From positions 262,715-326,714 of the forward strand of contig CAVYIK010000003.1 in the NCBI GenBank assembly GCA_963768625.1: a DNA stretch of 64,000 bases, written 5' to 3'. Below are positions 16,538 through 16,613 of this stretch, in pieces; position 1 is the stretch's first letter; every line of letters begins with the position of its first letter. The notes beneath the pieces were generated by a model that saw nothing but the letters and a program-made list of their open reading frames with translations, ran no database searches and was not told the DNA's origin. The position numbers and the translations under genes are program-made. The stretch is from an uncultured bacterium. GTDB lineage: Bacteria; Patescibacteriota; Minisyncoccia; UBA6257; 2-01-FULL-56-20.

Positions 16538-16613
16538 CTGAGCCAGACACAAAAGGGGTTTGGGAAGAGTACTCGGAAGGGCTCTTCCCAAACCCCTTTT
16601 GTGTCTGGCTCAG
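16538..16613 (-). repeat. Perfect long hairpin H1 (about 32-bp stem, 12-nt loop TACTCGGAAGGG on the plus strand), overlapping the ssb stop codon
   Basis: The arms 16540..16569 and 16582..16611 are perfectly complementary, and pairing extends 2 bp further. The loop is 16570..16581. Loop and geometry match H2 at 28706..28777, but the stem sequence is unrelated. Confidence 0.8.

Follow-up and report, generated by a model that had tools for sequence, protein, structure and literature searches.

What kind of element places an identical 12-nt tip on two long, perfectly paired hairpins within a single stretch of a bacterial genome, and what might it do there? The question arises from 64,000 nucleotides of an uncultured bacterium of the class Minisyncoccia (contig CAVYIK010000003.1, positions 262,715 to 326,714 of the forward strand), hereafter referred to as the window, in which one hairpin (denoted as W1) lies between the ssb stop codon and rplK and the other (denoted as W2) lies between the 23S and 5S rRNA genes. 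The other sequences compared are denoted by L numbers. W1 and W2 are members of a low-copy, lineage-restricted family of palindromic cassettes of ~75 nt, which is carried by several Minisyncoccia and one Saccharibacteria, with all copies located in Patescibacteria, or Candidate Phyla Radiation (CPR), genomes. No account of such CPR elements turned up in the searchable literature, and the family is apparently undescribed so far. The reading that we prefer, to which we give an even chance, is that the copies are low-copy cassettes akin to the REP and Correia elements, which act as double-stranded RNA (dsRNA) processing or 3'-end hairpins, with arms rewritten by template switching and a tip held under selection.

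The two cassettes of the window

W1 is a complete palindromic cassette at 16538–16613, comprising 32-bp arms and a 12-nt tip. Its left arm (16538–16569), which forms the distal arm, as the complement, on the minus (ssb) strand, is 100% complementary to the right arm (16582–16613). The apical 12-mer, TACTCGGAAGGG, occupies 16570–16581 on the plus strand and is read as CCCUUCCGAGUA in the ssb transcript. A TTTG box (16559–16562, plus strand) is situated 7 nt ahead of the tip, and its partner CAAA is found at 16589–16592. W2, at 28705–28778, is likewise complete, with 31-bp perfect arms around the same 12-mer (28736–28747, plus strand), which the pre-rRNA reads as CCCUUCCGAGUA. In its box, TTTT (28725–28728, plus strand), the G of TTTG is replaced by T, and this change is compensated by AAAA at 28755–28758. 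Beyond the 31 perfect base pairs, the pairing of W2 extends to 43-nt arms with an 88% match. Both sequences agree with the letters quoted in the initial annotation, which a model had made from the window alone, and the 12-mer occurs exactly twice in the window, at the tips of W1 and W2, confirming its statements that the loops are identical and that two copies are present. Its description of two stems of exactly 30 bp with identical geometry was partly accurate: the geometry is similar, but the stems measure 32 bp in W1 and 31 bp in W2. Similarly, the stems had been described as sharing no similarity. This applies to the outer arms, which match at background level, but the inner parts have elements in common, since both stems carry TTT at the same offset, 8–11 nt from the loop, and AG/CT closing pairs.

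W1 and W2 are by a wide margin the longest local inverted repeats of the window. When folded as RNA, either strand of each yields −63 to −66 kcal/mol with z-scores of approximately −13 to −15, and none of 200 shuffled sequences equals these values. The 12-mer itself is predicted to fold into a small internal loop, a 2-bp mini-helix (C-G and U-A), and a tetraloop. Chance or an assembly artefact was ruled out as the origin of the cassettes by their recovery from independent assemblies (L018 = L083 = L089, L039 = L090, and L100 = L101). The Logan assembly of the window organism extends up to the W1 arm, and other Logan contigs, built with k=31, end in or just before the palindromes (L097 at 3938, L109 at 1172, and the end of L087), where the topology of the de Bruijn graph predicts them to stop. 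Perfect palindromes break short-read assemblies, and the cassettes are probably under-represented or mis-oriented in CPR metagenome-assembled genomes (MAGs).

The cassette family and its conserved tip

Exact-core searches were conducted with the 16-mer AGTACTCGGAAGGGCT in ~600 Gb of genomes together with viral contigs, and with the 18-mer GAGTACTCGGAAGGGCTC in metagenomes. The 16-mer was detected at 79 genome loci and 3 viral loci, which is no excess over the chance expectation, and the 18-mer at 14 metagenome loci. Among these ~95 exact matches, long hairpins surround the core in Patescibacteria matches only, and in all of those. The flanks of the 16-mer matches form a long stem in three cases only, namely L018 and L039, which are Minisyncoccia MAGs from SPRUCE peat, and L034, which belongs to Saccharibacteria; complementarity at the others does not exceed 6 bp. 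The 18-mer scan returned the L018 and L039 loci again from independent assemblies, along with one copy cut at a contig end. The confinement of long hairpins to the Patescibacteria core matches in these public collections supports the earlier view that the identical loop is no coincidence.

Synteny walks started at ssb and at the membrane-protein gene beside 5S added further copies: L039-A (loop TACTCAGAAGGG), L100/L101 (loop TACTAAGAAGGG, between rpsF and ssb), L109, which is the W1 orthologue in the closest relative, L113-A (loop CACTTCCGAGAA on the transcript), and L113-B. The family totals 11 distinct copies in at least 6 genomes. This size is a lower bound, with loop variants (CA, AA, and CACTTCCGAGAA) reachable by synteny walks only. 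A covariance model of nine copies assigns 55–72 bits to all known copies; this model, R1, scores W1 at 71.6 bits and W2 at 71.8 bits, and it returned no copies beyond the known ones from 340 kb of related sequence.

Alignment on the loop revealed a module common to all copies, TTT(G/T)-N7-TACTNNGAAGGG-N7-(C/A)AAA. Its fuller form is TTT(G/T)-N5-AG-TACTNNGAAGGG-CT-N5-(C/A)AAA, borne on a Watson–Crick inverted repeat of 21–37 bp. The invariant columns are two T residues of the box, the AG, most of the 12-mer, and the partner A residues, with the two central T residues of the box and the partner A columns unchanged in nine of nine copies. Two loop positions are variable among copies, and these correspond to the tip of the predicted tetraloop. 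The arms beyond the box vary in both sequence and length (21–37 bp), and the termini are the least conserved part. The generalised core was not found in viral contigs. Since template switching is unable to regenerate this module, its conservation is ascribed to selection, and the tip is presumably maintained as the binding site of a putative protein.

The conservation of a tip over its arms had been described as the reverse of the pattern in REP elements and attC sites, and the family alignments bear this out. Like attC sites, the cassettes are structure-defined hairpins with widely varying sequence. In contrast to attC, which conserves the outer R''/R' boxes and extrahelical bases and varies in the centre, the cassettes have a conserved centre, variable outer ends, and perfect stems; they neighbour housekeeping genes and are accompanied by neither an integrase nor a cassette array. 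An identity as integron attC sites was accordingly rejected. A known RNA family was also rejected, as Rfam searches at gathering and permissive thresholds gave only sub-threshold matches of microRNA-precursor shape.

The tip is presented in both orientations. Four copies (W1, W2, L039-A, and L113-A) show CCCUUCCGAGUA to the host transcript, while the complementary loop is shown by L039-B, L113-B, L100, and L109. The statement that the loops face the same way relative to their transcripts therefore holds for W1 and W2 within the window, but the orientation varies across the family. Both orientations can be stable over the divergence of L039 and L113, in each of which the copies form inverted pairs ~100 nt apart. 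A kissing interaction between the complementary loops of such pairs found no support: those of L039 could form 11 Watson–Crick pairs and one G.U pair, but those of L113 only 9 of 12, and no covariation was observed. L109 and W1 have an identical 19-nt inner stem and opposite loops, and a loop inversion between them is probable; L109 is a single k=31 Logan contig ending in the hairpin. In a perfect palindrome, inversion of the loop is the same event as inversion of the whole element.

These orientations bear on an explanation in which the cassettes constitute an RNA regulon, with the apical module read by one RNA-binding protein or RNase and the stems kept paired by RNA-level selection alone. 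Parallels are provided by loop-specified dsRNA hairpins, such as the AGNN-tetraloop hairpins of yeast Rnt1p, the iron-responsive element (IRE) with IRP, and the histone stem-loop with SLBP, in which a conserved loop sets the action at a fixed stem distance. The cassettes resemble these in carrying a conserved apical loop on a variable stem. Moreover, the TTT(G/T)/(C/A)AAA box lies approximately one helical turn beneath the tip, and the pre-5S copy has the same orientation in three genomes. The transition mismatches of L039-A are all G.U on the transcript strand, and all mismatches of four imperfect copies are G.U or purine–purine on the strand with the loop CCCUUC..AGUA. However, the Rnt1p, IRE, and histone hairpins adopt one orientation on short or imperfect stems, whereas the cassettes occur in both orientations on pure Watson–Crick stems of 21–37 bp. 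Since both orientations are tolerated, any model reading one RNA loop sequence is weakened: half of the copies (L039-B, L113-B, L100, and L109) place the complementary loop on the transcript, and the closest W1 orthologue appears flipped. The stems of W1, W2, and L018 contain essentially no G.U pairs, a symmetric indel described below points to DNA-level copying, and the orthologous sites of sister genomes are empty or hold unrelated cassettes. We consider such a regulon unlikely. The RNA-level reading of the loop in the initial annotation is weakened by the same observations, namely an unfixed orientation and almost purely Watson–Crick stems.

Rewriting of the arms and turnover of the gaps

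Across seven full copies, 26 of the 30 stem pairs are changed on both sides and 92% of the cells remain paired, as against a one-sided (G.U-type) change at one stem pair only. None of 500 shuffles reaches the observed pairing, and no slid register comes close. The near-absence of G.U pairs extends over the ~95 bp of W1, W2, and L018 combined. The 5S-proximal hairpin is orthologous in the window (W2), L039-A, and L113-A, where it occupies the same place in the same orientation. Between L039 and L113, its arms are only ~54% identical with pairing kept, as compared with ~78% identity in the adjacent unpaired spacer and ~96% in the arms of the other hairpin, which lies nearer to 23S. Relative to L113-A, W2 carries 3 extra nt in each arm, placed symmetrically (CGC/GCG). 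The pure Watson–Crick stems, the clustered compensated changes, and the symmetric indel argue for arm-to-arm DNA copying rather than base-by-base compensation at the RNA level. Template switching is reported to make stems perfect, to extend them, to compensate several bases at once, and to invert loops (PMC8794818). The cassettes resemble quasi-palindrome template-switch hot spots, where perfect inverted repeats arise or are repaired in one step (PMC8794818, PMC7202029), in their clustered compensated changes, their extended stems, and, probably, an inverted loop. Such hot spots, however, reflect a mutational mechanism and not an element family, and they leave the conserved, recurring tip unexplained. 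The copies also decay, as indicated by three to four transition mismatches left uncorrected in L039-A, which is an older copy, and by a one-armed cassette in L105.

A permutation test on the outer arms identified W1/L018 as the only significant pair (GCCAGACACAAAA vs GCCACACACAAAA; P<0.001), with all other pairs, including W1/W2, at background. The L018 locus lies between convergent genes, whose two TAG stops are inside the two arms, and is unrelated to the ssb locus of W1. The match between unrelated loci indicates that a whole cassette has moved or been duplicated at least once. The initial annotation had suggested a foldback insertion in which a constant core copies flanking DNA in inverted orientation. 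The part concerning arm-to-arm copying is supported by the symmetric indel and the multi-base compensated changes, but the part concerning the flanks is not: the arms are unlike the local flanks at the spacer between S6 (rpsF) and SSB, and the W1 outer arm recurs at an unrelated locus. An origin of the arms from local flanks is unsupported, as the empty S6-SSB orthologues hold nothing like the arms (one site being comparable).

The variability of the arms could also be read as specificity, with the cassettes being genes for hairpin guides or small RNAs whose ~30-nt stems carry variable information in the manner of shRNA, CRISPR, or TIGR systems. The general shape, a constant tip with variable arms of ~30 nt, fits this idea, and TIGR-Tas systems are known in CPR, some with stem-loop arrays (PMC12045711). 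The arms, however, match no other part of the window and nothing among 2.9 million viral contigs. The hairpins are isolated and not arrayed, no Nop, Cas, or Argonaute-like gene is located nearby, and the arms are partly conserved, with orthologues drifting under compensation, unlike acquired spacers. A TIGR array unit consists of two 8–12-nt spacers flanked by box C/D, beside a Nop-domain Tas gene (PMC12045711); a 12-nt loop is too small for this arrangement, and no Nop-domain Tas gene was detected among the scanned window open reading frames (ORFs), so that a TIGR-Tas array was rejected. The hypothesis of small RNAs with stem specificity is thus unsupported, given the lack of arm matches, arrays, and a neighbouring effector gene, and we regard it as barely credible.

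The relatives keep the gene order FtsW, YceG, RpoBC, S6, SSB, L11, and Tmk, and the cassettes occupy the few free gaps of these packed, co-directional housekeeping operons. A gap is delimited by a stop codon and the conserved upstream block of the next gene, or by the 23S 3' end and the 5S leader, and the mRNA copies lie before the upstream block. The permissive gap leaves so little room that the cassettes inevitably touch the stop codon or extend into it. In the S6-SSB spacer, the conserved block (...gtcaag.ttctttaa...TGnTAGAAT) stands directly before ssb, 6 nt ahead of the ATG, and its sequence may represent a promoter. In every relative (among them L100 10001, L098 10001, and L104 10001), only 6 nt separate the end of the extended −10-like TGnTAGAAT from the ssb ATG, a spacing that suggests a leaderless ssb mRNA.

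Comparison of these gaps revealed a marked turnover. In L104 and L109, the conserved block follows the S6 stop after ~3 nt, leaving the S6-SSB gap empty, while L100, L098, L106, L107, L102, and L110 have it filled. After ssb, the gap contains a cassette in the window, L109, and L105 but none in L104 and L110, and the 23S-5S gap shows the same turnover as the S6-SSB gap. The contents of the S6-SSB gap also differ, comprising a cassette of the present family (family 1) in L100, a family with a 19–20-nt core in L098 and L106, a ~65-nt GC-rich core in L107 and L110, and 14-bp arms around a ~115-nt core in L102. Some sites show vertical inheritance of the cassettes, and elsewhere the relatives may have them, lack them, or carry a replacement. 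The comparison of orthologous spacers suggested earlier showed W2 kept in L039 and L113, a W1 orthologue in L109, and other gaps empty or holding other cassettes.

The second family has 24–26-bp arms around a 19–20-nt core (TCGCACGAGAGACGAGTTC / TTCCTGCGAAGACGAAGTCG) and is found in the S6-SSB and 23S-5S gaps (L098 9875–9944; L106 8774–8840 and 20320–20390; L105 20073–20181). The stem differences between its orthologues are all compensated, and the right arm of the L105 copy is deleted. The third family has a GC-rich core of ~60–75 nt (TACGGYGTCGCG...GGCTCCGAGA) and 24–30-bp arms that differ by locus (L107 ~15555–15675 and ~4200–4330; L108 ~8346–8460; L110 ~4903–5030), with L108 and L110 combining a common ~65-nt core with different arms. 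The 3' end of this core, CCCTTCGGCGGCTCCGAGAG, resembles the family-1 12-mer, CCCTTCCGAGTA, and family 1 might be a deletion derivative of the third family. In L102, one ~115-nt core is present in the adjacent S6-SSB and SSB-L11 spacers (~9798–9950 and ~10460–10640) between unrelated inverted arms of 14 bp and ~22 bp. The pairing of a constant core with unrelated arms in other families as well indicates that W1 and W2 are one instance of a general habit of the clade. A dedicated CPR factor, for example a hairpin-specific nuclease, a transposase, or a protein associated with the polymerase, could recognise the apical module or use it for nucleation, install cassettes in gaps near stop codons, and re-synthesise one arm from the other, a scheme that would include the other core families and allow the loop to flip between two states. 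Such a factor is quite doubtful; if it exists, the cassettes would define a class of self-renewing elements with a constant core and rewritable arms.

The same turnover is relevant to the possibility that the cassettes are selfish, non-autonomous elements resembling REP/REPIN or IS200/IS605 ends, with the tip and inner stem recognised by a hairpin-binding single-strand DNA transposase whose gene lies at another genomic locus, and any RNA effect incidental. One whole cassette is common to unrelated loci in two genomes, cassettes at orthologous sites are present, absent, or replaced, and both insertion orientations are found. The coexistence of filled and empty orthologous sites, seen at the S6-SSB and post-ssb gaps, is shared with miniature inverted-repeat transposable elements (MITEs) and Correia elements. 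Mismatch tolerance is strand-asymmetric, the identical tip in another CPR class, Saccharibacteria, fits horizontal spread, and the inverted pairs of L039 and L113 resemble BIME/REPIN arrangements (PMC3116915). Against this, the copy number is far below that of REP-like elements (two copies in 64 kb, and only known copies in 340 kb), the arms are unconserved, and the pre-5S copy is stable in place and orientation in three genomes. REP elements end in a GTAG or CGTC tetranucleotide (PMC3733652), but no such tag is conserved here, the ends being CTGA (W1), GCCA (W2), GTAG (L018 only), GCTT, CATG, and ATAA. Conserved terminal inverted repeats of the MITE/Correia type are lacking, no direct repeat indicative of a target-site duplication flanks any copy, and no RAYT or Y1/HUH transposase was detected among 45 window ORFs scanned against Pfam or NCBIfam. 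A purely selfish origin is assigned a rather low probability. Both this explanation and the RNA regulon differ from the composite reading that we prefer mainly in emphasis.

Placement, proposed function, and known elements

Both host operons of the window are transcribed from the minus strand. The upstream host gene of W1, ssb (16610–17089, Pfam SSB in relatives), ends in ...EDIPF-TGA, and the right arm of W1 includes this stop (tca at 16610–16612, read as TGA from the minus strand) together with the final coding base, in line with the overlap noted in the initial annotation. The downstream gene, rplK (L11; 16042–16467), was assigned by synteny. On its transcript, W2 is positioned 29 nt downstream of the 3' end of the 23S rRNA (28808–32593, with a LAGLIDADG intron inside) and 16 nt upstream of the 5S rRNA (28574–28689), both assigned by Rfam. 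It takes up 74 of the 118 nt of the spacer between the 23S 3' end at 28808 and the 5S 5' end at 28689.

These positions constrain the possibility that the cassettes are factor-dependent or U-tract-independent terminators at the ends of transcription units. The mRNA-context cassettes are located exactly between a stop codon and the upstream block of the next gene, the L018 cassette lies between convergent genes with both stops in its arms, and a diverged L105 copy is followed by a T-run. Six copies (W2, L039-A/B, L113-A/B, and L106a), however, precede 5S in the rRNA operon, and no 5S rRNA could be made if transcription ended at them. With 5S situated beyond W2, the cassettes are regarded as non-terminating. 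W1 and W2 lack a U-tract, with no T/U run within 20 nt after either on the transcript strand, as stated earlier. A terminator scan of the window did not list W1 or W2, but listed canonical sites with a short stem and T-run at 13408–13384 and right after 5S. The initial conclusion that the hairpins are not ordinary intrinsic terminators is hence upheld on all three grounds, and terminators of another kind are very unlikely.

The preferred reading, a dsRNA processing or 3'-end hairpin, would operate as follows. The cassettes would be co-transcribed with their host genes. In the RNA, the ~30-bp perfect duplex could serve as an RNase III-type substrate and as a block to 3'-exonucleases, by which the flanking RNAs would be separated or stabilised, i.e., 23S from 5S and ssb from rplK. 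RNase III, where a bacterium has it, would cleave such a duplex. RNase III-type precursors contain a near-perfect duplex of >20 bp, and the cassettes provide 31–32 perfect base pairs, in the case of W2 between 23S and 5S. At the DNA level, template switching within the hairpin during replication (the quasi-palindrome mechanism) would keep the arms perfect while rewriting them; this would account for the pure Watson–Crick pairing, for compensated changes spanning several bases, for the symmetric indel, and for loops that are occasionally inverted. The tip would be conserved by selection, with a putative partner binding the RNA, a single-stranded DNA hairpin, or a cruciform. Among the hypotheses of the initial annotation, a loop presented on a long dsRNA stem as a processing or stability element best fits the locations.

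Several points weigh against this reading. The transcription of the hairpins, the read-through, and the cleavage are deduced from gene order only. Four copies show CCCUUCNNAGUA and four show UACUNNGAAGGG to the host transcript, although a tip that is read as RNA should not tolerate both orientations. For a mobile repeat, two copies per 64 kb is a very low number, and neither target-site duplications at the copies nor a transposase among the scanned window ORFs was found. The identical 12-mer in Saccharibacteria could reflect horizontal transfer instead of selection. Template switching alone leaves unexplained the ~85–90% identical cores on totally unrelated arms (the L102 copies, and L108 vs L110). 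An RNase III gene was not found in ~400 kb of clade sequence, which is a small fraction of each genome and makes this result uninformative.

The closest known counterparts are other small palindromic intergenic elements, from which the present family differs by conserving its tip and not its termini, by its perfect and rapidly rewritten arms, and by its low copy number. Correia elements (CREE) of Neisseria are high-copy, end in conserved inverted repeats of 26 bp, and duplicate a TA target. The cassettes are like them in being intergenic palindromes with inverted repeats around a conserved core, but they are low-copy, their termini are the least conserved part, and no duplication was seen. CREE are co-transcribed with their neighbours, form an RNA hairpin that is bound or cleaved by RNase III, and vary in presence among strains (PMC2649163); RNase III cleavage of the present cassettes is putative. 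With REP/REPIN elements, for which roles in mRNA stabilisation and termination have been proposed (PMC3116915, PMC3337134, PMC3733652), the cassettes share their placement as palindromes in transcribed operon spacers, singly or as inverted pairs, and their vertical persistence. REP elements, in contrast, are imperfect palindromes of 20–40 nt whose sequence is conserved from end to end within a genome, which holds tens to hundreds of them along with a RAYT gene; none of these features was seen in the cassettes or, for RAYT, among the 45 scanned window ORFs. The intervening sequences (IVSs) and spacer stems of rRNA are likewise long, near-perfect pre-rRNA hairpins that are sporadic, variable in sequence, and removed in processing (PMC4990558, PMC8708148, PMC6582327). 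IVSs, however, are located in helices 25 and 45 of the 23S rRNA, and a classical processing stem arises when the 5' and 3' flanks of an rRNA pair, whereas the cassettes are local hairpins in the 23S-5S spacer; they also follow protein genes and carry a conserved tip, which has not been described for IVSs.

The family demonstrates no new biochemical principle. CPR bacteria have tiny, dense genomes and are mostly uncultured, and the punctuation and processing of their polycistronic RNAs are barely known; a recurrent hairpin cassette found after core genes and in the 23S-5S spacer can be tested as a candidate signal for RNA processing or for 3' ends, and its conserved tip could be used to search for the partner protein. 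The family also provides a natural case of arm rewriting at the DNA level with pairing kept, which bears on the origin and persistence of long perfect stems.

Additional features were observed in the window and its relatives. The ORF in the 23S intron (29208–29651, minus strand) encodes a LAGLIDADG homing endonuclease, and relatives carry one to three such 23S introns as well as group I intron matches. No 16S gene is adjacent to the window 23S. In L105, a tRNA-like match of 67.9 bits at 5584–5656 falls within the 23S gene span (4211–8884), presumably in an insertion or intron. A 363-amino-acid ORF at 17150–18241, between rpsF and ssb, has no Pfam or NCBIfam match; the relatives lack it and contain only a short rpsF-ssb spacer. 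The rpoB-rpoC region of the window (18886–25600) is broken into several ORFs, probably by indel errors of long-read assembly, and L106 is fragmented likewise. Relatives encode a single RpoB-RpoC fusion protein of 2243 amino acids, which is notable in its own right.

A classical diversity-generating retroelement (DGR) is located at 37737–40252, with its reverse transcriptase at 37737–38825 (minus strand), the template repeat at 39140–39256, and the variable repeat at 39579–39695, in the C-terminus of the ORF at 39578–40252. The mismatches between the two repeats are nearly all at template adenines (A>G 17, A>C 4, and A>T 4). Since the reverse transcriptase is part of this DGR with its own template and variable repeats, the hairpins as products of a nearby reverse transcriptase were ruled out. 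Lastly, at 52693–54882 and 61022–62974, the window encodes a YcaO cyclodehydratase–nitroreductase domain fusion and two proteins with type IV pilin-like N-terminal methylation motifs.

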